Source of the DNA: an uncultured Candidatus Saccharibacteria bacterium
Lineage (GTDB): Bacteria; Patescibacteriota; Doudnabacteria; UBA920
NCBI GenBank assembly: GCA_964650255.1
Contig: CAZYQT010000006.1
Coordinates: forward strand, 1 to 24,000
DNA length: 24,000 nucleotides
Reading direction: 5' to 3'
Part shown: positions 3,526 to 20,867 of the stretch, piece after piece
How the letters are laid out: every line of letters starts with the position of its first letter
Numbering within the stretch: position 1 is the stretch's first letter
Notes under the pieces: generated by a model
Seen by the model: the letters and a program-made list of their open reading frames with translations, nothing else
What the model was told of the DNA's origin: nothing
Databases searched by the model: none
Position numbers and translations under genes: made by a program

Positions 3526-4290
3526 TTAAATTTTTTCCCAAAACCCTTTAAACATTTCACGTAAGTTTTTAGCCATGACTGCATCATGCGTTTCTACTAA
3601 ATAGTGTGGATGTTGGTTAGTAACTATAAACAAAACATAATCACCAAGAACTGCATGTGTAGCAGTAAAGTCCACGGATTTATCCCAATACTTCACTTGT
3701 CGATTTTTATTCTTCACAGCATCGGCAATTTCTTTTTCCGAAGGTTTATTGTTTGTAATTAAGCGTGTACCAAAATCCTCTGGAAAAATTTCCCAATGAT
3801 GCTCAACCCAATCTTTATATTCTTGTAATATTGATGCATCTTGAAATCCCCACCAGTTTTTCTCATTAATGTTTTTGGCACTCTCAATCCAAATAGGTAA
3901 TTGCTTAAATAGAAAATCTTTTAATTGTGGCTCATCAATAAAACGAATTTTAGGAACAGAATACTGCTTTGATTTTGGCAAAGCCTGTAATTCCAAGATT
4001 GCCTGCTCAATAGCAGTCTTTTTTTGTTCAAGTTCCTGTTCTTGCGATTTATATAGAGTGCGGAGTTCTTCGGGGGGCGTGGCTGTGTAGTAGGTGGTGG
4101 TGCCGCCCAAGTCCTCTTGGATAATTCCTTTTTTGATAAGCTCCTTAGAAACGCTGTAAACAGTAGTTCTATTGATTTTTGATACTCGGGAAACGTCTGC
4201 AGCTGATAGTTTACCATTCTCTTGAATGCACAAATATACGGCGATTTCCTTATCTGTGAATCCTAATTCTTGCAAATATTCGTTTAGCAT
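3526..4290 (-). CDS. TrmB-family transcriptional regulator
   Basis: The N-terminal winged HTH is typical of TrmB (LGFTDKEIAVYLCIQENGKLSAADVSRVSKINRTTVYSVSKELIKKGII), followed by a coiled-coil linker and a C-terminal effector-like domain. Confidence 0.8.
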   Translation of the reverse strand: MLNEYLQELGFTDKEIAVYLCIQENGKLSAADVSRVSKINRTTVYSVSKELIKKGIIQEDLGGTTTYYTATPPEELRTLYKSQEQELEQKKTAIEQAILELQALPKSKQYSVPKIRFIDEPQLKDFLFKQLPIWIESAKNINEKNWWGFQDASILQEYKDWVEHHWEIFPEDFGTRLITNNKPSEKEIADAVKNKNRQVKYWDKSVDFTATHAVLGDYVLFIVTNQHPHYLVETHDAVMAKNLREMFKGFWEKI

Positions 4291-4296
4291 AGACTA

Positions 4297-4305
4297 ATTA
4301 TAGCA
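4297..4305 (-). promoter_or_regulatory. Extended -10 (TGCTATAAT) placed 6 nt before the trmB-like ATG; candidate leaderless promoter
   Basis: Minus strand reads TGCTATAAT-tagtct-ATG. Confidence 0.5.
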
Positions 4306-4389
4306 TGTTGTTGGAGATAAATCAACATATATTTTATGTTATAAATAAGCCATTTATCTTAAAATAATCTAACATTATTTGGAATACTC

Positions 4390-4418
4390 TTGACAAAATG
4401 TCAAAAACTTGATATACT
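4390..4418 (+). promoter_or_regulatory. Near-consensus sigma70 promoter of the hammerhead-containing operon, with an operator-like palindrome over the -35
   Basis: TTGACA (4390-4395)-17 nt-TATACT (4413-4418). The perfect palindrome TTGACAaaaTGTCAA spans 4390-4404. Confidence 0.7.
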
Positions 4419-4482
4419 GGTCTCAACAAAAATAAATTCTGGTGTAGCGAGCCAAAAATACGCAAAATTTTAGGAGGAAAAA

Positions 4483-4875
4483 ATGGTACCAAGTTTTGAC
4501 AGTAATGGCTTAGCTGATGGCCTTACGGAAATGGATGAGGCGTCCAAAGCTCGATTGGAAGAATGGAAGGAAGCAATTAACAAACTTCCTGATACTGAGG
4601 ACTTTGATACAGACACACTCTCCAATCAAGCTTACATCTTAATACAAGGGGCGCTAGATGTAGGTTTTGATGAACATAGATCCCATGATGTGTTCTATCA
4701 ATTCAATCAAGGTGATCGAGCTCTCTTAACTGAAAGTTGCAATTGCAGTAGCGGTAGTCTGTGCCCGGCTAGACAAGCGAAAGTTAGATTCGATGGAACA
4801 TGGAATGAAGCTTACGCCGAGATGGTCAAGCTTTTGAAAAATAAAGCTAACCAAATTCCACAACCACCTGTGTGA
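4483..4875 (+). CDS. Hypothetical acidic protein, 130 aa (operon ORF1)
   Basis: AGGAGG lies 6 nt upstream of the ATG. No family recognised. Confidence 0.65.
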   Translation: MVPSFDSNGLADGLTEMDEASKARLEEWKEAINKLPDTEDFDTDTLSNQAYILIQGALDVGFDEHRSHDVFYQFNQGDRALLTESCNCSSGSLCPARQAKVRFDGTWNEAYAEMVKLLKNKANQIPQPPV

Positions 4876-4898
4876 AAACAGTTAAATCTTTTAGGTTC

Positions 4899-4971
4899 GA
4901 GAGGTCCTATTAAAACCTCTCACTGTCTCGAAGTGAATACTTCGACTGATGAGCTCAAAAGAGCGAAACAG
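4899..4971 (+). ncRNA. 7-bp hairpin (4899-4921) plus type III hammerhead ribozyme (4923-4971), copy 1
   Basis: CUGUC|UCGAAG-UGAAUA-CUUCGA-CUGAUGA-GCUC-AAAA-GAGC-GAAA-CAG. All invariant core positions are present, with a GUC cleavage triplet. Predicted cleavage falls after C4927. Confidence 0.88.
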
Positions 4972-5045
4972 AAAATCCAGCATGTGACTGGTTCGCGGGC
5001 TGATAAGGATCGCGCGAGACATTAAGCAATAGGAGGAAATTAAAT

Positions 5046-5417
5046 ATGCAAAATTTGTTGACTAACAAATTAGAAGCTGACTTAGCAGCTGTAGTTGCCA
5101 CTGAAGCATTTAATGATGCTGCGCACGCTGCTGAGTGGAAATTTGTTGAGTATGTGAACATTAAACAATTTAATGGTTCCATATCAGCAACTGCTATATA
5201 TTCATCAGATGATGTGATATTAGTATACGCTAATGGCTATGGTGACAAAAACCATTTTGCTCATTCGTTTTTGAGGCACACCTTGGAGAAGGCGGGCTTC
5301 GCGTATGCTGAGATAAATCTATATTTATCAATTCACACTGGATTAAGGCCTTGTTTAGTAATTTCTGATTACGATAAGTCTGTGAGTCCAGCTGAGTATA
5401 TATCTAGCAGGCTTTAA
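5046..5417 (+). CDS. Hypothetical protein, 123 aa (operon ORF2, bracketed by the two ribozymes)
   Basis: AGGAGG at 5031-5036 lies 9 nt upstream of the ATG. No family recognised. Confidence 0.65.
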   Translation: MQNLLTNKLEADLAAVVATEAFNDAAHAAEWKFVEYVNIKQFNGSISATAIYSSDDVILVYANGYGDKNHFAHSFLRHTLEKAGFAYAEINLYLSIHTGLRPCLVISDYDKSVSPAEYISSRL

Positions 5418-5649
5418 TTGCGCTGTTTAAATAAACAGTTCGCAATATCCCAGAGCTTAGTCTGACTGGGGGATATCTAATTTAATGCGCTATGAAAGAC
5501 CGAAAAGCGCGAAGCAGTATGTGACTGTGGACAGTGAATTAGACTAAATATCATGTCGTGAGACAGCAATATTTAGAAATTAATAAGCTCCACGTGATAG
5601 CCGTTTGTCTATCAACCTCCCCGCTCAAGTAGGTTTAAACCTTGAGCAC

Positions 5650-5722
5650 AGGAGATTCTAATAAAATCTCCTTCTGTCTCGAAGTGAATGCTTCGACTGA
5701 TGAGGCCAAAAGGACGAAACAG
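5650..5722 (+). ncRNA. 7-bp hairpin (5650-5672) plus type III hammerhead ribozyme (5674-5722), copy 2
   Basis: CUGUC|UCGAAG-UGAAUG-CUUCGA-CUGAUGA-GGCC-AAAA-GGAC-GAAA-CAG. The core is identical to copy 1. Stem II has one G.A mismatch and one compensated pair. Predicted cleavage falls after C5678. Confidence 0.8.
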
Positions 5723-5755
5723 ACAAATATGATAGTCAATCAATAGGGGGTGTGT

Positions 5756-6163
5756 ATGTTAAAGATTGAAAATGATGAGTTTAAGAACTTTCCTGTTGAT
5801 CAGCAGGTAAATATTATCCATAAAGCAATTATGGCTGATGATGATATAGAATTTTTCTTTTATGAACTGAAATGCGGTGTGGAAGAAAAAAAGTCCATTT
5901 ACAAGGCTCACTGTAAAAATCAAACGAGAGATGGGTCAATAGTTCGAATGTTTGAAGCTATGGATTTAAGTGATGTTGAAAAACAGGAATTAGCAGAGTG
6001 CGCGATTACTGCAATTATCTCAAATAAATTTTTGAGCTCTGCAAGATATAGATATGACATGCTCTCAAAATATCTTAGTTCAGACAAGCAGGCAAAGTTT
6101 TCTGCCGTGCTTGAGGATCGTGAGCATCAATCTTCATTGCGTAAAAGTGTTCTAGGTATATGA
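5756..6163 (+). CDS. Hypothetical protein, 135 aa (operon ORF3)
   Basis: The track starts at GTG 5750. I prefer ATG 5756 because AGGGGG (5745-5750) would then be a properly spaced SD. No family recognised. Confidence 0.6.
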   Translation: MLKIENDEFKNFPVDQQVNIIHKAIMADDDIEFFFYELKCGVEEKKSIYKAHCKNQTRDGSIVRMFEAMDLSDVEKQELAECAITAIISNKFLSSARYRYDMLSKYLSSDKQAKFSAVLEDREHQSSLRKSVLGI

Positions 6164-6184
6164 ACCAAAACACGCATTTATTTT

Positions 6185-6212
6185 GCCGGTTGTTAATTCA
6201 GCCGGCTTTTTT
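6185..6212 (+). terminator. Intrinsic terminator of the three-ORF operon
   Basis: GCCGGUUG-uuaauu-CAGCCGGC (8 bp including one U.G) followed by TTTTTTgTTTT. Confidence 0.7.
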
Positions 6213-6233
6213 GTTTTCCCAGTTTAGTCTGGA

Positions 6234-6324
6234 AAACAGAAGGATATTTGCTAAGCAGGCAGTCACGGTAAGCGCAGCCGCGAAGCGGCGTGAGCACTGT
6301 CTGCGTGCAGATATCCTTCTGTTT
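6234..6324. repeat. Long imperfect GC-rich inverted repeat (extended hairpin), function unknown
   Basis: Perfect 14-bp outer arms: AAACAGAAGGATAT at 6234-6247 and ATATCCTTCTGTTT at 6311-6324. Inner 9-bp stem GCAGGCAGT/ACTGTCTGC. Apical GCCGC-gaa-GCGGC. Confidence 0.6.
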
Positions 6325-6356
6325 CATCAGTCTCAAAATATGCTATGATAAATGAT

Positions 6357-8572: not shown

Positions 8573-10825
8573 ATGCCAAAGAAAGCTGCGGTTAAGACCG
8601 CGCCTAAATCAGAACAACTATATTGCAGTGTGGACCTGGAGTTTACCGGGTTCGATCCGAGCAGAGACCAAATTTTAGAAATTGGATTTGCGTTTTTTAG
8701 GTTGTCCAGCAAAGGATTCGAAGTTGTTGAAGAGTGGTCGCAAGTTTTTAAGCCATCAATAGAAGTTCATCCAAAAATTTTAGGCTTAACTGGTATTACC
8801 CAACAAGAGTTAGATGAAGCTCCTGAGTTCAGCGAATTTCGCGAAGAGTTGCAATCAAAATTAGGCGATGCGATTATAGTCGGCCACAACCCTGTAATGG
8901 ATGTTAAGTTCTTAGAAAGTTATGGGCTCAAGTTATCTGGAAAGATTGTTGACACCCTCGAGTTAGTCCAATTTATTTTGCCAACACACCACAGTTATAA
9001 TCTAGAAAACTTGGTGCATTATTTCGGGATCAAGCATCACAAAGCTCATCGTGCTTTAGGTGATGCTTTGTCGACCATTAAGGTGCTAGAAAATCTAACC
9101 AAAATTTATCAAAATTTTAGTGAGACCCTAAAAGCCGAGTTGCAAGAAGTAACTGACCGAGGAGATTTTTTGTGGACCAAGATTTTAGAAACTGAATTGA
9201 AATCGAAAAAAGCACAAAGTAACGATTCTCTGAAACATGTATTTACTAAAGGAAAAGTTTCCGCGTTAAAGTTAAGTCCAAATTTAATTACTATTGATGC
9301 CTCCCCTGATCATCACGAAGTTCGGGCAGCGGTTGGTTTACAAAAGGAGAACAAGTCATCAGTAATCGCTGTTGCAAATGCAAACACGGTAATGCAATTA
9401 TGGCAGAACGGATTTGCGCATGGTGTGTTTCGCAGCGAAGACACTTTTTCTGAAAGCGCTTTCAAAAAGTTTTTAAAAAGTGCACAGACTAGTGAAGAGT
9501 TAAGATTTTGTCTAAAGATCATTGTGTGGCTACACACCAACTGGCAAACCGAAGCAGTGTTCGATTTGAACATTTCTTTTTTTGGCGGGCAGTTTCGACA
9601 ACATATTGTTGGCGGTAAACCAGTTTTAAGAACTGAACCGGTAATCGCAATTGACTATGTTACTTTAGAATCTTTTGCTGCTCAAAAGAAATCTTCCCCG
9701 ATCGCTAATCGTAATTTGTTAATTTGTGATATTCAGGAATTTGAAAAATACATTAGTACTGGGTTTGGCACACGTTTGGGCTGGGCTAATGTTTTGTATG
9801 CACTCCGTTCAATTTATAACCCAGAAACTGAGTTTGGAAATTTAAAACTGAAAGATGAAATTGTGAATGCGCTCGTGGCAACGGATTTATTTTTTGGATT
9901 AGCCTTTATGCTATTACATCAAGCTTTGCCTCACAGCCAATATGCCACCCTGGGTGAGGTAGAGCTAAACCATGGTCATGTGCACTCTAGGCTAAGACGC
10001 GCAGCCGAAAAACTTAAAGAGAAATTTGATAAGATTCTCAAAAATACAGAATCCCCAGAGTTGGCTAGGGCAAGCAGTTACCTGGAGTCCTTTTTCTATA
10101 GTGATCCAAATCGGGTAAAGTGGATCGATATAGATGAACGCAATTTGTCCTTTCATGATCAACCAATTGATATTGCAGAAGACGTTGCCAAGGTCCTGAA
10201 ATCTTTTACCAGTACTCGCTTTACTGCAATCATGGCAAATGATAAGTTACTTTTTTACCTTATCGATCGTCTCGGTTTGCATACGGAAAGTTCCGAGATA
10301 CTTAGCAATTCATTACCAAATACCTTTATTGTATCGAATGATACCGAGTCTGTTATAAGCAGAGAGTTTTTGTTTAAAGAAGTACAGAGTGCCACCTTAC
10401 CTGCAGTAGTGGTAATGCCAAACTTATCTGAAGTAAAGGAGTTCTACAATAGTTTCTACGATGAAATAAAGAAAGAAGCGGCTTTATTTGCCCAAGGCTA
10501 TTCAGGTGGCGGCAATAAGATGTTTCGCAACTTTAGTATTAACCCAAAAAGCATTCTATTAGTAACTGCTGAGTTTATGGGTAAACAAAATTATATGATT
10601 CCTGCCAAAACAGTTATTTTTGCGGGCTTACCTACAGTAGAACGTAGCCATCCGTATACATCAGCATTAATTTCGTACTGGCAAGGCAAGCACCCGGAAT
10701 TGGAATCATTGCTTTCCTTCTCAAAGATGGCCGCTGCATTAAAAAAGATAAAAGTTTCCGGTAAAGTACGCTTAAAAATATTTTCTAAGGAAAAAGTTTT
10801 GTATTTTGTGGACAAGTCCCGTTGA
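8573..10825 (+). CDS. DnaQ-like DEDDh 3'-5' exonuclease fused to a DinG-like helicase-like region with degenerate motifs
   Basis: The N-terminus carries exonuclease motifs (SVDLEFTG, GHNPVMDVKFL, HRALGDA). The C-terminus (VIFAGLPTVERSHPY) resembles the end of DinG/XPD helicases. I found no Walker A GxxxxGK[ST] in the translation. Confidence 0.6.
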   Translation: MPKKAAVKTAPKSEQLYCSVDLEFTGFDPSRDQILEIGFAFFRLSSKGFEVVEEWSQVFKPSIEVHPKILGLTGITQQELDEAPEFSEFREELQSKLGDAIIVGHNPVMDVKFLESYGLKLSGKIVDTLELVQFILPTHHSYNLENLVHYFGIKHHKAHRALGDALSTIKVLENLTKIYQNFSETLKAELQEVTDRGDFLWTKILETELKSKKAQSNDSLKHVFTKGKVSALKLSPNLITIDASPDHHEVRAAVGLQKENKSSVIAVANANTVMQLWQNGFAHGVFRSEDTFSESAFKKFLKSAQTSEELRFCLKIIVWLHTNWQTEAVFDLNISFFGGQFRQHIVGGKPVLRTEPVIAIDYVTLESFAAQKKSSPIANRNLLICDIQEFEKYISTGFGTRLGWANVLYALRSIYNPETEFGNLKLKDEIVNALVATDLFFGLAFMLLHQALPHSQYATLGEVELNHGHVHSRLRRAAEKLKEKFDKILKNTESPELARASSYLESFFYSDPNRVKWIDIDERNLSFHDQPIDIAEDVAKVLKSFTSTRFTAIMANDKLLFYLIDRLGLHTESSEILSNSLPNTFIVSNDTESVISREFLFKEVQSATLPAVVVMPNLSEVKEFYNSFYDEIKKEAALFAQGYSGGGNKMFRNFSINPKSILLVTAEFMGKQNYMIPAKTVIFAGLPTVERSHPYTSALISYWQGKHPELESLLSFSKMAAALKKIKVSGKVRLKIFSKEKVLYFVDKSR

Positions 10826-15966: not shown

Positions 15967-16827
15967 ATGAATTTTATCAAAAAATTATCATCAGCAGTTT
16001 TATTGGCAGCAGCTGCTTTGGTGTTGATCGCGCCTAGCTTTTTGTTAACTCCACGGACTGTCCAGGCTGAATCTTGTAGCCCATTATTTTTAGTGCGACC
16101 TTCTCAGAATCAAGCTGGCTCCGACGGCGTGATTGTTAAACCAGCAGACGCTAAGAAAGTTTATTTAGATGTAAAATTTAGTCTTAACGGCCCGAGCACA
16201 TGTCAAGGACCAGCATACGTTGTGGCCAAGTGGAACAATGCAAAAACTACAATCACAAATAATGTAGACAAAGTTTTTAATTACACCAGCGTCCCCGCAA
16301 GAGAAGGCGTGTATAGAATTGAACTACAGATTCCGAATAGTGGTTTCGGTAAAGAGGTTACTGTAACTGTTGCCGATGACGTTCTTCATCCGCCAGCCGG
16401 TGGGATTGGGACTGAGAATGGAAGTCACGTGCAGCCAACTGACAAGCCAACGAATGGTAGCAAGGGCGGGTTTGTACCTTGTGGCAATACTGCAGATAAT
16501 CCTTGCCAAATTGGTCATCTATTTTCCGCATTTATTGTAATCATCAATTATCTAATGGCCATGGCAGGGTTTGTGGCAGTACTAGCAATTATTTTTGCCG
16601 GGTTTATGATGATCTATTCTCAAGGACAAGAGAAGCTTAAAGAAGCCAAGGGCCGTTTTACAGGAGCAATCTTTGGGTTGGTGTTAGTGGCGGCGGCATT
16701 TGTCTTGATTAACTCTCTTTTCGCTGGCAGCTTGAGTATTGGTGTAAAAGATGGCGGTAAAATTTTATCAGACCCTCTCGAGTATATTAATACGAGAAGT
16801 AGTACTACTAATTCAAATACAAGATAA
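15967..16827 (+). CDS. Pilin-like paralog P1: signal peptide, beta-rich N-terminal domain and C-terminal VirB2/TrbC-like two-helix module
   Basis: Signal peptide ...TVQA|E. The C-terminus reads IINYLMAMAGFVAVLAIIFAGFMMIYSQGQEKLKEAKGRFTGAIFGLVLVAAAFVLI. Confidence 0.75.
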   Translation: MNFIKKLSSAVLLAAAALVLIAPSFLLTPRTVQAESCSPLFLVRPSQNQAGSDGVIVKPADAKKVYLDVKFSLNGPSTCQGPAYVVAKWNNAKTTITNNVDKVFNYTSVPAREGVYRIELQIPNSGFGKEVTVTVADDVLHPPAGGIGTENGSHVQPTDKPTNGSKGGFVPCGNTADNPCQIGHLFSAFIVIINYLMAMAGFVAVLAIIFAGFMMIYSQGQEKLKEAKGRFTGAIFGLVLVAAAFVLINSLFAGSLSIGVKDGGKILSDPLEYINTRSSTTNSNTR

Positions 16828-16832
16828 TACCT

Positions 16833-17231
16833 ATGAAGCATTTACTAGCGCTGAATAATAATTCCGGCGGCATCAAAATAAATAGCAACACCGGCAATAA
16901 TTCAAATCAGACTGGTTCTGGTTCGGGCACTGGTACTGGTGGTAATGCCAATAATTTTACTTTGGTTAAACCGGGTAAGATTACTGATGTTTTCAATGGC
17001 AAGTCTTTGCTTCAAATTGGAACTATGTTCATCAATTTTCTTTTGGCCATGATTGTAATTGCTGCAGTGGTGGTAATTGTTATTGCCGGATTCAAGATGG
17101 TTTTAGGTGGTGCCAACGAATCGCAAATCGCCAAGCAAAAAAAAGCCATTGTCTATGCCATTGCTGGTTTGGTGGTAGCGTTTATGTCGTTTGCCATTGT
17201 CCAAATTGTTCAAAACTTTATTCAGAAATAA
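16833..17231 (+). CDS. Pilin-like paralog P2: N/G/S/T-rich N-terminus with no obvious signal peptide
   Basis: The C-terminus reads FINFLLAMIVIAAVVVIVIAGFKMVLGGANESQIAKQKKAIVYAIAGLVVAFMSFAIVQIV. Confidence 0.7.
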   Translation: MKHLLALNNNSGGIKINSNTGNNSNQTGSGSGTGTGGNANNFTLVKPGKITDVFNGKSLLQIGTMFINFLLAMIVIAAVVVIVIAGFKMVLGGANESQIAKQKKAIVYAIAGLVVAFMSFAIVQIVQNFIQK

Positions 17232-17232
17232 A

Positions 17233-18153
17233 ATGCGAAAAACTGTGCAAAATTTGAAACTATTTTTTTACAGGCTGGGGCTAACTATTTTTGTCGCGTT
17301 CTTATTGATGGGGAGTAGTTCTACAACTGCCCATGCTCAAGCCAGCGCTACAGCCACAGACGGACGATGTGTAACAATCAAAGTATTTCTAATTAATTCA
17401 GCGGCCAACACCCCAGCCAATATAACCAGAATTAAAATTTCTGATGCTGGTAAATACGCTCTTCAGGTTGATATCAAAACTAATTTCGGCTGTACAGTTA
17501 ATGGAAAGTACACGTTAAAAGGTCAAACTTATGAGAATCAAAATGGTACCAATACTACCCCGCAAGAAACTTTTTATTTTGCTAACAGGCAGCCTGTCAC
17601 AACAAATGATTTTGCAAAGCGAACGGATGCCTTTGGCAGGCCAGCACATCCTTATTCGTATGTATATACTCTAGATTATGATAGCGACGATCTTTCCACT
17701 AATCTTTCCGCTCATATTACAATTACTTTTACGGACGACAAGGGTAATTCAGGTTCAACCCCAGGAAGCGGCGGTGGCAGTGGTAGCGGCAGCGGTACGG
17801 GCAGTAACAGTAATGTTCCTCCAAACAACAGTGTTCCGAATGAAGATATAAAAACTGATACAGATTTTACTTTAGTTAACTTAGATGATCCAATTGGCAC
17901 TTTTGATAATTTACTAAATTTCGGCTCAGTTCCGGAAGCAATTGTTAGCCTCATCAGGATATTGTTTATATTAATTGGTATTTCCGCAGTGATAGTCATA
18001 ATTATTGCTGGGTTCCGAATGGTTGTAGACAGCGGAAATGAGACGCAAATGAAGAAAGCCAAGGAAGCAATTACGTGGTCAATCGTTGGTCTAATAGTTT
18101 CTATTTTAGCGTTTAGTATTGTGGCAATTATTCAAAGAATTATTCAAGGTTAA
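17233..18153 (+). CDS. Pilin-like paralog P3: signal peptide, beta-rich domain, Gly/Ser linker and pilin module
   Basis: The ATG at 17233 sits 1 nt after the P2 stop codon, so the tracked upstream extension is an artifact. Signal peptide ...TAHA|QA. The C-terminus reads LIRILFILIGISAVIVIIIAGFRMVVDSGNETQMKKAKEAITWSIVGLIVSILAFSIV. Confidence 0.75.
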   Translation: MRKTVQNLKLFFYRLGLTIFVAFLLMGSSSTTAHAQASATATDGRCVTIKVFLINSAANTPANITRIKISDAGKYALQVDIKTNFGCTVNGKYTLKGQTYENQNGTNTTPQETFYFANRQPVTTNDFAKRTDAFGRPAHPYSYVYTLDYDSDDLSTNLSAHITITFTDDKGNSGSTPGSGGGSGSGSGTGSNSNVPPNNSVPNEDIKTDTDFTLVNLDDPIGTFDNLLNFGSVPEAIVSLIRILFILIGISAVIVIIIAGFRMVVDSGNETQMKKAKEAITWSIVGLIVSILAFSIVAIIQRIIQG

Positions 18154-18154
18154 A

Positions 18155-18595
18155 ATGATGATAAAATTTTCTAAATTTATTTGTGCAGTAGCAACGGCTT
18201 TGGCGTTGCTTGTTCCCCAAATTGCTTTAGCTGCAAACAATAACAATGGTAGTGCTAATGGCTCCGCTGGTAAGACAGACACCTGCGCGACTCTTAAGCA
18301 ACAGTTTGATAATGCCAATGGCTCCAATGTGATTGCTAATATTCCCCAGTACTGCCGCATAGAATTTGTTTATCAAAAATTTATTAATACTGCTCTGTAT
18401 TTCATTGGTATTGTGGCAGTAATTGCCGTAATATACGGCGGTTATTTGTACATGACGGCTGGTGGCAACGCAGCCCAAGTTAAAAAGGGCCGGTCGGTAT
18501 TGACTTGGGCAATAATTGGCTTAGTAGTAGTGCTGGCGGCTGCTGTAATTGTGAATGTGGTGGTGAACTTGCTTGTTGAAAACAAATTTGTATAA
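18155..18595 (+). CDS. Pilin-like paralog P4 (short form)
   Basis: The ATG at 18155 sits 1 nt after the P3 stop codon. Signal peptide ...QIALA|A. Module: FINTALYFIGIVAVIAVIYGGYLYMTAGGNAAQVKKGRSVLTWAIIGLVVVLAAAVIV. Confidence 0.75.
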   Translation: MMIKFSKFICAVATALALLVPQIALAANNNNGSANGSAGKTDTCATLKQQFDNANGSNVIANIPQYCRIEFVYQKFINTALYFIGIVAVIAVIYGGYLYMTAGGNAAQVKKGRSVLTWAIIGLVVVLAAAVIVNVVVNLLVENKFV

Positions 18596-18667
18596 TCCGC
18601 AAGTTTTCAGTAAAATATAGATACGTTACATATCATATAAATCCACACTTGAAAGGTGGTGAAAACA

Positions 18668-19105
18668 TTGAAACAAACCTTAAAAAAACTTAATTGGTTG
18701 AACGTTGCACTATTTGTAATAGTAACTGTAGTATCAATCGCTCCAGTTCTAGCTACTGCTGCGGCTCCCCGCTTAGCAGACGCTCAACTCATCAACCAAT
18801 TCGTTAATAACTGTCCTGCTGATACTGGAGTGCGTTGTTCCGAAGGGAGCATTGCTTCTATTTTCCGCTTGATCATCAACTGGGCGTTGGCAATTGCCTT
18901 TATCGCTGCTGTAATTATGCTTATCTATGGTGGTTTCCGTTACATCACTTCTGCTGGTAACTCTGACCAGGCTACTACAGGTAAGACTGCAATCGTGAAT
19001 GCTTTGATTGGTATAGTTATTATCGTTCTATCATACATTATTGTTCAGATCGTTTACCGCTTCGTTGCTGGTAATGGCACTGGCGGAGTTCTCGGCGGAC
19101 CGTAA
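18668..19105 (+). CDS. Pilin-like paralog P5 (short form), probable TTG start
   Basis: TTG 18668 lies 8 nt after AAAGGTGG and aligns with the TTG start of P6 (MKQTLKKLNW vs MKLENKKFNW). Module: IINWALAIAFIAAVIMLIYGGFRYITSAGNSDQATTGKTAIVNALIGIVIIVLSYIIVQIVY. Confidence 0.75.
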   Translation: MKQTLKKLNWLNVALFVIVTVVSIAPVLATAAAPRLADAQLINQFVNNCPADTGVRCSEGSIASIFRLIINWALAIAFIAAVIMLIYGGFRYITSAGNSDQATTGKTAIVNALIGIVIIVLSYIIVQIVYRFVAGNGTGGVLGGP

Positions 19106-19119
19106 TTAAAAACAAGAAT

Positions 19120-19521
19120 TTGAAATTAGAAAACAAAAAATTTAATTGGACTAGTGTTGCATCAATGTTGGTGGCTTTAGCGATAGTTTTGGCCCCAGCG
19201 GTGTTGCCTCATGTTGCAATGGCTCAGCAAGGAATAGGGCAAATGCCTTGTCCTCGCGACCTGGGATATTTGTGTACTGATGGCAGCGTTGCCTCTATAT
19301 TTAGATTAATTCTAAACTGGGCAATGACTATTGCTTTCCTTGCAGCAGTTATCTATTTAATCTACGGTGGATTTCAATACATCTCTTCCGCAGGTAATAC
19401 AGATAAAGCAACCAAGGGACGCGCAACAATTGTGAATGCCATTATTGGCATAGTAATAATTGTCTTGTCATATACTATAGTTCAAATTGTGTACAACTTT
19501 GTTGTCAGCCCTACTCGGTAG
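19120..19521 (+). CDS. Pilin-like paralog P6 (short form), TTG start
   Basis: Closest paralog of P5. Module: ILNWAMTIAFLAAVIYLIYGGFQYISSAGNTDKATKGRATIVNAIIGIVIIVLSYTIVQIVY. Confidence 0.75.
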   Translation: MKLENKKFNWTSVASMLVALAIVLAPAVLPHVAMAQQGIGQMPCPRDLGYLCTDGSVASIFRLILNWAMTIAFLAAVIYLIYGGFQYISSAGNTDKATKGRATIVNAIIGIVIIVLSYTIVQIVYNFVVSPTR

Positions 19522-19610
19522 GTGACATAGAAATGGTTTTCCCGCACTCGCTGCGGGATAGCTCCGGGAATAAAATTTAATATTTTACTTCCGGAATTAT
19601 TAAAACAATT

Positions 19611-20027
19611 ATGACAAAAAAAATCTTTTTACCATTAGTCGCTACAATGATCTTCGTTACTTCGATTTTCATGGGTCCGACTTTGGCTGTATCGCAAGTA
19701 CACGCGCAGAGCACAACTAACACTGGCGACAAAGTCCAGGATGGACTAACTGATATTGGCGCAGCTTATCCTGCCGGCGCAAAGCAAGAGCGCAATTTAA
19801 AAGACGTTATTCGCAAAGTTATTAACTGGGCGTTGTATTTCGCTGCTATCATTGCCGTTATCTTTATAATCATTGGTGGATTTATGTACATAACTTCTGC
19901 TGGTGATCCTGGTAAAGCAACTAAAGGCCGCACTACATTGGTTAATGCTTTAATTGGTTTAACAATTATCGTACTATCTTACTTGATTGTTCAGATTGTT
20001 TACAACTTCCTGATCAACCGAACATAA
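19611..20027 (+). CDS. Pilin-like paralog P7 (short form)
   Basis: Signal peptide ...QVHA|Q. Module: VINWALYFAAIIAVIFIIIGGFMYITSAGDPGKATKGRTTLVNALIGLTIIVLSYLIVQIVY. Confidence 0.78.
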   Translation: MTKKIFLPLVATMIFVTSIFMGPTLAVSQVHAQSTTNTGDKVQDGLTDIGAAYPAGAKQERNLKDVIRKVINWALYFAAIIAVIFIIIGGFMYITSAGDPGKATKGRTTLVNALIGLTIIVLSYLIVQIVYNFLINRT

Positions 20028-20042
20028 TTCTAGTCATTTAAC

Positions 20043-20867
20043 GTGAAAATTTCGCAAAAATTTTTGAATAAATTTTCCATGGCCATGCTACTGCTATTGA
20101 GCATGGCTTTTTTGGGTGTTGGTTTTGTATTTAAAGCCCATCCAGCTGAGGCAGCAACGATTGATGTGTGTATCAATCGTAGCAATGGCAATCTAGATTA
20201 CCCAACTAATAATCAGTGTCCAACAAATTTTGAATTAGCTACTGGAATCTCCACTCAGTATGGCGGTGTTTGCATTGCTCAAGAAGAAGATACAGGGCGT
20301 TTCGGAATAGTTTATCCTACTGGCGAATATGAATTGGATAGAAACGGTAAAACTTGTGTCTTAAGTTCAGACCACGCAACCCCAATTGGTGATTTTGTAA
20401 GATTGAGAACAACTGGAACCGGTGGTGGTAGTGGGGACCCTGTTGATCCAGGTGGTAGTGGTTCAGGGCCAGGTTCTGGTTCCGGCAGTGGAAGCGGTTC
20501 AGGCTCAGGGTCTGGATCGGGATCATCGACAACAAGTAATGCTGCCTGCGATCCACCACAAGAAGGCTTCCATAAGGTTGGGCCACTTTGTGTTCCCAAT
20601 AGCCCATTCACTAACAAAGATGCTCCGATTAACTCTCCAACAGCAGCTGGGCTTGCCGTAAAGATCATCAAAATAGCATTGTATTTTGCAGGCATAGTGG
20701 CAGTAATTATGATGATTATTGGTGGTTATCAGGTCATGACTGCTGGCGCGAATGCAACCCAAGCCACTGATGGTCGCAAAACCCTTACCAATGCTATTAT
20801 TGGCTTAGTCATAGTGATTTTGTCGTACATTGTCATCCAGGCTATTACTAATTACCTCACTAAATAA
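20043..20867 (+). CDS. Pilin-like paralog P8: signal peptide, Cys-containing N-terminal domain, long Gly/Ser linker and pilin module
   Basis: GTG start; an internal ATG start is possible. Signal peptide ...PAEA|A. Linker: (GS)n. Module: IIKIALYFAGIVAVIMMIIGGYQVMTAGANATQATDGRKTLTNAIIGLVIVILSYIVIQAI. Confidence 0.75.
   Translation: MKISQKFLNKFSMAMLLLLSMAFLGVGFVFKAHPAEAATIDVCINRSNGNLDYPTNNQCPTNFELATGISTQYGGVCIAQEEDTGRFGIVYPTGEYELDRNGKTCVLSSDHATPIGDFVRLRTTGTGGGSGDPVDPGGSGSGPGSGSGSGSGSGSGSGSGSSTTSNAACDPPQEGFHKVGPLCVPNSPFTNKDAPINSPTAAGLAVKIIKIALYFAGIVAVIMMIIGGYQVMTAGANATQATDGRKTLTNAIIGLVIVILSYIVIQAITNYLTK

Follow-up and report, generated by a model that had tools for sequence, protein, structure and literature searches.

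The question raised by the locus described here is why three small genes in the chromosome of an uncultured Candidatus Saccharibacteria bacterium should be separated from each other by self-cleaving ribozymes. The locus lies within a stretch of 24,000 nucleotides (nt) (contig CAZYQT010000006.1, positions 1 to 24,000; referred to below as the window), in which positions 4390-6216 of the forward strand form a compact transcription unit consisting of a promoter, three open reading frames (ORFs), a hammerhead ribozyme in each of the two intercistronic gaps, and a terminator. A first-pass annotation, made from the letters of this region, had described a promoter and a terminator enclosing three ORFs that bear Shine-Dalgarno (SD) sequences, a hammerhead in both of the gaps and a dedicated divergent regulator, and all of these elements were located in the present work; the catalytic cores of the two hammerheads (4923-4971 and 5674-5722) are complete, and the regulator is a gene for a TrmB-family helix-turn-helix (HTH) protein (3526-4290, reverse strand). 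The interpretation that we favour, with moderate confidence, is that this is a lineage-specific accessory operon, in which the ribozymes split a TrmB-controlled tricistronic RNA into single-gene mRNAs and thereby insulate the cistrons from one another.

Both hammerheads (viz. hammerhead 1 at 4923-4971 and hammerhead 2 at 5674-5722, forward strand) are of type III. Each copy consists of CUGU-C, stem I (6 base pairs (bp), loop UGAAUR), CUGAUGA, stem II (4 bp, loop AAAA) and GAA-ACAG; the core (CUGAUGA...GAAA...) and the cleavage triplet GUC are complete in both and, as in the type III form of the Rfam family RF00008, loops close stems I and II, with stem III open. The predicted cleavage sites directly follow C4927 and C5678. 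The RF00008 model matched positions 4920-4974 (40.2 bits, E 9.6e-07) and 5671-5725 (36.5 bits, E 1.1e-05), a custom covariance model, R1, gave 72.8 and 69.8 bits for the two copies and found only these two in the 24-kb window, and two instances of the core motif CTGANGAG-N10-CGAAAC were counted in the window as compared to none in 100 shuffles. Rfam searches of the operon at E values up to 10 revealed no other class of ribozyme. Each hammerhead lies within one copy of a 75-nt direct repeat (83% identical, copies 751 nt apart). Directly 5' of stem III the repeat includes a hairpin, which, unlike the rest of the motif, is outside the Rfam model and is referred to here as the 5' clamp hairpin. 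For hammerhead 1 this hairpin (4899-4921, forward strand; GAGAGGU, a 9-nt loop, ACCUCUC) ends 1 nt before stem III; for hammerhead 2 it is formed by AGGAGAUU, a 7-nt loop and AAUCUCCU (5650-5672, forward strand), with compensatory changes relative to the first. Hairpins of at least 9 bp that end 0-3 nt before stem III are present in 29 of 66 distinct copies of this ribozyme versus 33 of 599 windows drawn at random from these loci. This hammerhead subtype has a stem III of 4-5 bp, next to which the 5' hairpin abuts.

The sequence and structure of this ribozyme are conserved well beyond the window. A pattern in which the core, stem III and parts of the loops were fixed, and the positions of stems I and II were left free, was searched in one genome per species (185,579 species), where it matched 22 contigs. 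Seventeen of these are from named lineages of the Patescibacteria, or Candidate Phyla Radiation (CPR) (viz. Saccharibacteria, Paceibacteria, Nomura-, Taylor- and Wolfebacteria, Parcubacteria and Nanosynbacter), five are from metagenome-assembled genomes (MAGs) of unclassified 'bacterium', and none carries the label of another phylum. The pattern search also identified 46 viral contigs in IMG/VR with the same hammerhead subtype. Among 42 distinct relatives, 99.7% of the stem I and II cells are paired and 175 double-sided changes were counted, affecting 9 of the 14 pairs in these stems, a result not equalled in any of 500 shuffles. A relaxed pattern showed that stem III covaries as well, with CUGU/ACAG, CCGU/ACGG (in L078) and CUAU/AUAG (in L079) as its pairings (L-numbers denote the related loci that were compared with that of the window). 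The number of copies per relative is between 1 and 4, and arrays of 2-4 are seen in other CPR operons: model R1 detected extra copies in L009 (4), L015 and L021 (3 each), and L010, L011, L020 and L023 (2 each), L002 has a hammerhead in each of its three gaps, and the operons of L158, L078, L079 and L012 have a single hammerhead each. In some of the relatives the cleavage triplet is GUU. The hammerheads of the relatives are on the sense strand between ORFs of the same strand and, according to crude ORF calls, the end of the upstream ORF is no more than 120 nt away in 36 of 50 cases and the downstream start no more than 150 nt away in 38 of 49. They are kept in every syntenic relative examined (L001, L002/L003, L029, L158, L078 and L079).

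Two further observations concern the relatives only. In many CPR copies from outside the Saccharibacteria, the sequence GUUCUUU is found 1-6 nt after GAAACAG (in L010, L011, L017, L021, L023, L026 and L028); it is complementary, with G.U pairs, to loop II and the 3' half of stem II (AAAGAGC or AAAGGAC), and its pairing could produce an alternative fold competing with the ribozyme. The window copies lack this sequence. The viral copies likewise carry the 5' hairpin, and the IMG/VR contigs L046, L033, L063, L035, L044 and L061 (~50-65 kb) exhibit the same hammerhead-plus-hairpin architecture; the ribozyme in viral contigs is mostly located 25-55 nt downstream of a gene for a conserved protein of 300-340 amino acids (aa) (motifs GYHSKPSP ... 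EFRIPSR), and a search with one representative of this protein matched no Pfam family.

Comparison of the syntenic loci indicates that what is conserved at this position is a framework consisting of the regulator, promoter, leaders and terminator, within which the ORFs vary. The window and L001 align in four blocks at 74-86% identity, viz. the promoter (4390-4438), ORF1 together with hammerhead 1 and the following leader (4465-5037), a spacer (5449-5647) and the terminator (6179-6221), and in place of ORF2 and ORF3 L001 contains unrelated ORFs of 114 and 51 aa. Since the flanks are 74-86% identical, point mutation cannot explain the loss of homology between them, and ORF2 and ORF3 have therefore been replaced. 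The boundaries of the replacement hug ORF2 (5038 to 5448) and not the ribozyme cleavage sites. The locus is a mosaic in other relatives too: in eight related Saccharibacteria loci there are 22 cassettes, for which only three families are shared (the ORF1 family four times, a receiver-domain-like protein twice and a protein of 156/166 aa twice). The hammerhead in these cases follows the locus and not one particular ORF, as the single hammerhead of L158 is not next to the ORF1 homologue, and no hammerhead is found near the ORF1 homologues with 30% identity that lie beside the S10 operon (L159 and L160). The first-pass annotation had expected ribozymes and ORFs to be conserved together; of this, the retention of hammerheads in all syntenic relatives stands, but they are kept with the framework rather than with particular ORFs. 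The receiver-domain-like protein is a stand-alone protein (MKILVIED...; weak match to PF00072), which was observed as a cassette in hammerhead operons of different CPR lineages (L002 8682-9122, L029 6863-7342, L017 and L019).

The non-coding modules of the framework are reused in front of different ORFs. The leader that follows hammerhead 1 (4972-5045, forward strand), which comprises the hairpin CCAG-CAUGUGA-CUGG and the SD sequence of ORF2, is 86% identical to L001 3202-3265 despite the different ORF that comes next. This type of post-hammerhead leader is shared by the window and L001, and another type by L002, L029 and L158. In L079 (reverse strand, ~4395-4500 and 5040-5140), the same leader hairpin module of ~90 nt precedes the SD sequences of both ORFs, i.e. 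that of the first ORF, which follows the promoter, and that of the second, which follows the hammerhead; a module related to it was noticed in L078. Likewise, the spacer that forms the 3' untranslated region (UTR) of ORF2 (5440-5650, forward strand; ~210 nt, about five helices) is 83% identical to L001 3634-3834, though the genes upstream of it differ. Long-range pairing of GGGGA with UCCCC closes its fold, which has a GUC-GUGA-GAC hairpin inside, and RNAalifold gave 46 pairs, at least 6 of which have compensatory changes. The spacer has no match in Rfam at E values up to 10 and no further copies were found beyond the window strain and L001; on these grounds it is a candidate for a new structured RNA. 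The hairpin motif CAG-YAUGUGA-CUG is present twice in the window, at 4978-4990 (after hammerhead 1) and at 5515-5527 (in the spacer), for which the chance expectation is 0.05 per window, and L001 also has two copies in equivalent places. A bolder proposal, which we consider distinctly improbable, is that the locus is a natural plug-and-play expression platform of CPR bacteria, in which the hammerhead, leader and hairpin modules would serve both as RNA-level insulators and as homology arms for the exchange of orphan ORFs at a TrmB-controlled hotspot, with the spacer as a possible new class of functional, and possibly self-cleaving, RNA, given that new classes of ribozymes have earlier been discovered adjacent to hammerheads.

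The promoter (4390-4418, forward strand) has the sequence TTGACA-17-TATACT with an extended -10 TG (11 of 12 matches in a consensus scan), and the intrinsic terminator (6185-6216, forward strand) consists of the hairpin GCCGGTTGTTAATTCAGCCGGC at 6185-6206 followed by a T run; the two are the top-scoring sites of their kind in the region. The -35 element of the promoter lies within a perfect palindrome, TTGACAAAATGTCAA (4390-4404). The promoter block with its palindromic -35 is kept in L001, L002, L029 and L158, and the terminator in L001, L002 and L158. The palindrome is a candidate operator, to which the TrmB-type protein would bind, and its conservation fits such a role.

The regulator, a divergent TrmB-family winged-HTH protein of 254 aa (3526-4290, reverse strand), matches PF01978 (E 9.9e-15) in its N-terminal 74 residues only (residues 6-74), and past about residue 100 no Pfam or NCBIfam domain was detected, the C-terminal part being where TrmB-family regulators have a sugar-binding effector domain. 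It has a promoter-like site of its own at 4297-4325 on the reverse strand (TTGATT-17-TATAAT with TG; 10 of 12 in the consensus scan). Orthologues with 66-80% identity occupy the same position in L002, L029 and L012, and the window protein is 80% identical to the copy in L012 and 73% to that in L029, both of which are from MAGs labelled Candidatus Saccharibacteria; a Saccharibacteria (TM7) bacterium is accordingly the most likely source of the window. BLAST clustering of ORFs showed that a TrmB-family gene adjoins the hammerhead operon in 15 of 25 loci, usually in divergent orientation and 0.4-1.6 kb from the first ribozyme; in several of the hammerhead loci lacking it, the contig ends on the regulator side. 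In the reverse test, 80 metagenomic loci with relatives of TrmB were scanned and hammerheads were found in 16; among full-length relatives with enough flanking sequence, a hammerhead is present only beside the two closest (72-74% identity; L078 and L079). A TrmB-type gene is thus the usual neighbour of CPR hammerhead operons, though most TrmB genes guard no such operon. Other neighbours were also observed. For the hammerheads of L024 (2326-2374; a Nanosynbacter MAG) and L030 (3495-3543; another Saccharibacteria MAG), a divergent winged HTH-NUDIX gene is in the place of TrmB; the L024 hammerhead is 21 nt upstream of a gene for a 372-aa protein with a uridine-kinase/PRK domain, and in L009 a gene for a PRK-family kinase also comes after a hammerhead.

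The three ORFs between these signals are all on the forward strand: ORF1 at 4483-4875 (130 aa; SD sequence AGGAGG at 4472), ORF2 at 5046-5417 (123 aa; AGGAGG at 5031) and ORF3 at 5756-6163 (135 aa; AGGGGG at 5745), with a distance of 6-9 nt between SD sequence and start in each. In terms of codon usage, as log-odds trained on the window's long genes, the three score positive in the annotated frame alone (0.19, 0.29 and 0.26 for ORF1, ORF2 and ORF3; host genes 0.33 +/- 0.14), and a 62-aa ORF at 6160-6348, which overlies the inverted repeat described below, scores negative in its own frame. The first-pass annotation could assign none of the three to a known family, and this holds: searches of Pfam, PHROGs, PADLOC, NCBIfam and PDB sequences yielded no significant match. 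Against the defence-system models of PADLOC-DB the ORFs had no match, and the regulator had only weak matches at the HTH level. The ORF1 family amounts to three proteins among 5.8e9, two of them non-identical homologues of that in the window, and the contigs of both are syntenic with the window (FtsK, TrmB on the reverse strand, the operon on the forward strand, RodZ, RecA) and have hammerheads of the same kind. Among 1.84e9 cluster representatives the family has 10, of ~130 aa, in whose alignment W28, LP, H68, CxC...CPA, GTWxE(I/V)Y and a C-terminal IP are conserved and in which no Pfam domain was found. The conserved histidine and cysteines (H68, C86, C88 and C94) suggest a putative metal site. 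An AlphaFold2 model of ORF1 based on the 10-sequence alignment (predicted local distance difference test score, pLDDT, 76; predicted template modelling score, pTM, 0.74) has an alpha/beta/alpha arrangement of a helix, a sheet of 4-5 strands and a C-terminal helix; a model from 3 sequences (pLDDT 48.6) was unusable. Foldseek searches with the former, a check proposed in the first-pass annotation, gave no significant fold match (best E 0.37 in PDB and 0.076 in BFVD), and a weak likeness to TriTu, a small immunity protein (probability 0.57), does not count as evidence. ORF2 and ORF3 are orphans: among the 5.8e9 proteins only an identical protein of the same strain was found for ORF2, and only a strain variant with 96% identity for ORF3. 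A match of ORF2 to a VapD fusion (E 0.5) is noise, in which the aligned region includes the GB1 tag. With respect to ORF3, L077 51-200 (corresponding to window 5775-5924) has six substitutions relative to the window, all nonsynonymous and five of them to T, which are all within the first 170 nt of ORF3 and near the contig end, the rest of this 1.7-kb contig having one difference; these could be due to positive selection or to an assembly artefact.

If the interpretation favoured here is correct, then transcription would start at the strong promoter 4390-4418, which the divergent TrmB-type protein probably represses through the palindrome overlapping the -35, and both of the type III hammerheads would fold and cut co-transcriptionally after C4927 and C5678, yielding three single-gene mRNAs with defined ends. 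On its 3' side, each upstream product would then carry a stable hairpin and, after it, CUGUC bearing a 2',3'-cyclic phosphate, an end that should resist 3' exonucleases, and each downstream product would begin with a 5'-OH in the folded ribozyme followed by the conserved leader and the SD sequence. As the stem III of 4-5 bp is propped by the abutting hairpin, fast separation of the products would be expected. Each cistron would in this manner be insulated from its neighbours, and the fixed framework of promoter, ribozymes, leaders and terminator would accept different ORFs. In engineered ribozyme insulators (RiboJ-type), a hammerhead upstream of the ribosome-binding site gives the mRNA a defined 5' end, so that the upstream context becomes irrelevant. 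The present case is akin to these, but it is natural, tandem and intercistronic, and its hairpin is upstream of the ribozyme and would thus remain on the 3' end of the preceding mRNA. The conservation of the ribozymes in sequence and structure, the mosaic make-up of the loci and the linkage to the regulator are observations, and cleavage in vivo, its consequences for stability and repression by TrmB are inferences from them.

A number of observations weigh against this interpretation. The scores of both window copies are below the gathering score of 48.5 bits, mostly because stem III is only 4 bp; the copy at the orthologous locus L002 (8036-8090), with 49.0 bits, is above this threshold. Minimum free energy folding fails to give the full hammerhead fold, as is usual for this motif, and hammerhead 2, with a G.A mismatch at the second pair of its 4-bp stem II (not adjacent to the core), may be slow. 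Gaps without a hammerhead exist in L001 and L158, which shows that a ribozyme is not needed at every junction, and no hammerhead or other Rfam ribozyme was found alongside the TrmB relatives of 40-46% identity that are full-length and have enough flanking sequence; it would therefore be incorrect to interpret the link to the regulator as an obligatory one. Lastly, a 5'-OH end can lead to decay rather than to protection, as in Bacillus, where RNase J1 degrades the product of the glmS ribozyme. The latter precedent leads to a different explanation of the same arrangement, which fits it equally: the hammerheads may mainly tune down the distal genes, the exposed 5'-OH targeting the mRNAs of ORF2 and ORF3 for 5'-to-3' decay, in which case ORF1 would be expressed most strongly and the ratio of expression would either be fixed or vary with condition or Mg2+. 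In its favour, the GUU triplets of some relatives and the suboptimal stem II of hammerhead 2 suggest rates that are tuned and not maximal. However, the 5' end made by cleavage is at once base-paired in stem I and is followed by a conserved leader, which in L079 is identical to the leader of the primary 5' UTR, and such an end looks built for expression and not for decay. We regard this explanation as unlikely.

The remaining two explanations concern mobility. The first-pass annotation had noted a phage-like or accessory character for this locus, and the accessory part of this claim is upheld; the phage-like part is not, as the neighbouring genes are those of the core chromosome (FtsK, RodZ, RecA, FtsH). 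The window is ordinary chromosome, in which the operon is fixed between ftsK/trmB and rodZ/recA, and its genes include those for FtsK, RodZ, RecA, a DEDDh exonuclease, LspA, a ComM-like ATPase, a nucleotidyl transferase, a solute-binding protein, a tRNA and FtsH. The same hammerhead subtype is nevertheless present in the 46 viral contigs, ORF2 and ORF3 have no homologues, and the six changes that separate ORF3 from L077 are all nonsynonymous; from these facts it could be argued that the hammerheads are decaying relics of an inserted phage or mobile element and the small ORFs junk or spurious. However, in many CPR lineages the ribozymes have intact cores and covarying stems, the syntenic position is fixed with no integrase found among the annotated genes, the GC content (relative to the surrounding chromosome) and codon usage of the operon are host-like, and the window proteins searched had no match in PHROGs, nor were tblastn or blastn matches obtained to GenBank phages. 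A relic origin thus appears very improbable to us. Even more remote, in our view, is the excision of the segment that the two cuts would delimit (4928-5678, 751 nt; ORF2 and the spacer) and its ligation into a circle, e.g. by RtcB, in the manner of viroids and retrozymes; such a circle would be an ORF-bearing RNA that is stable or mobile. This unit is indeed flanked by direct hammerhead repeats (the 83% identical copies noted above), the joining of its ends would rebuild a complete hammerhead, and the possibility was raised for other hammerhead arrays by Perreault et al. (PLoS Comput Biol 2011, PMC3088659). However, these authors sought circular and spliced products and found none (PMC3088659), the window has no reverse transcriptase or ligase gene, and there is only a single hammerhead in the operons of L158, L078, L079 and L012. 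The swap boundaries between the window and L001, which hug the ORF (5038-5448) and are off the cleavage sites, also argue against mobility of the hammerhead-delimited unit.

Two other features were noticed. Between the operon terminator and rodZ is an 18-nt inverted repeat (6234-6324; 94% complementary, 55-nt loop), the 3' arm of which, AUAUCCUUCUGUUUC, is similar to the sequence that flanks hammerhead 2 on its 5' side. That this repeat might be a third hammerhead was considered and rejected, because neither strand has a CUGAUGA/GAAA core in the right register. By reading of the sequence, a comparable long hairpin of different sequence precedes rodZ in L002 (~9215-9330). At 15967-20867 there are eight tandem paralogues resembling pilins of type IV secretion systems, at least two of which match PF18895 (type IV secretion system pilin).

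With regard to what was known earlier, clustered hammerheads that flank single genes or short gene blocks were described in 2011 in bacterial prophage transcripts (Perreault et al., PMC3088659), hence a layout of multiple hammerheads with variable genes is not in itself new. In that work the tandem hammerheads of three such arrays, in polycistronic RNAs of ~2 kb, cleaved in vitro, and their proposed role was to process long transcripts into gene-length mRNAs (PMC3088659). The window resembles these prophage arrays in that at least two sense-strand hammerheads flank the genes of one promoter-terminator unit and the identities of the genes vary. However, it differs from them in lying in a housekeeping region of a CPR chromosome where no integrase or phage genes were found, in its divergent TrmB-type regulator, in having a single type III subtype with a stem III of 4-5 bp and an abutting 5' hairpin, and in the exchange of ORFs amid conserved non-coding leaders and spacers. 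A partial likeness also exists with operons subject to selective RNA processing and stabilisation, such as the cellulosome operon of Clostridium (PMC4423207), where processing between the cistrons, together with 3' stem-loops, reportedly determines their relative stability; there cleavage is by protein RNases, whereas in the window it would be autocatalytic. In the literature searched, no paper linking hammerheads with Patescibacteria, CPR, Saccharibacteria or TrmB was found. What appears to be new is the CPR lineage (every lineage-named cellular match is of this group), the non-prophage chromosomal setting and the frequent TrmB neighbour, and also the 5' clamp hairpin with its minimal stem III and the architecture of a conserved framework with swapped ORFs.

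The CPR, or Patescibacteria, have tiny genomes with few regulators and many genes of unknown function. The locus described here points to a recurring way in which these bacteria may organise accessory genes, viz. under a strong regulated promoter and as self-cut, standardised messages, and the genes inside this framework turn over rapidly between species. If cleavage takes place as proposed, then the biology of bacterial hammerheads would extend from prophages to the regulation of host chromosomal genes, and the operon would be a natural counterpart to the synthetic ribozyme insulators. In addition, a set of fast-evolving orphan proteins and one structured RNA would be marked out as subjects for functional study in cultivable Saccharibacteria.

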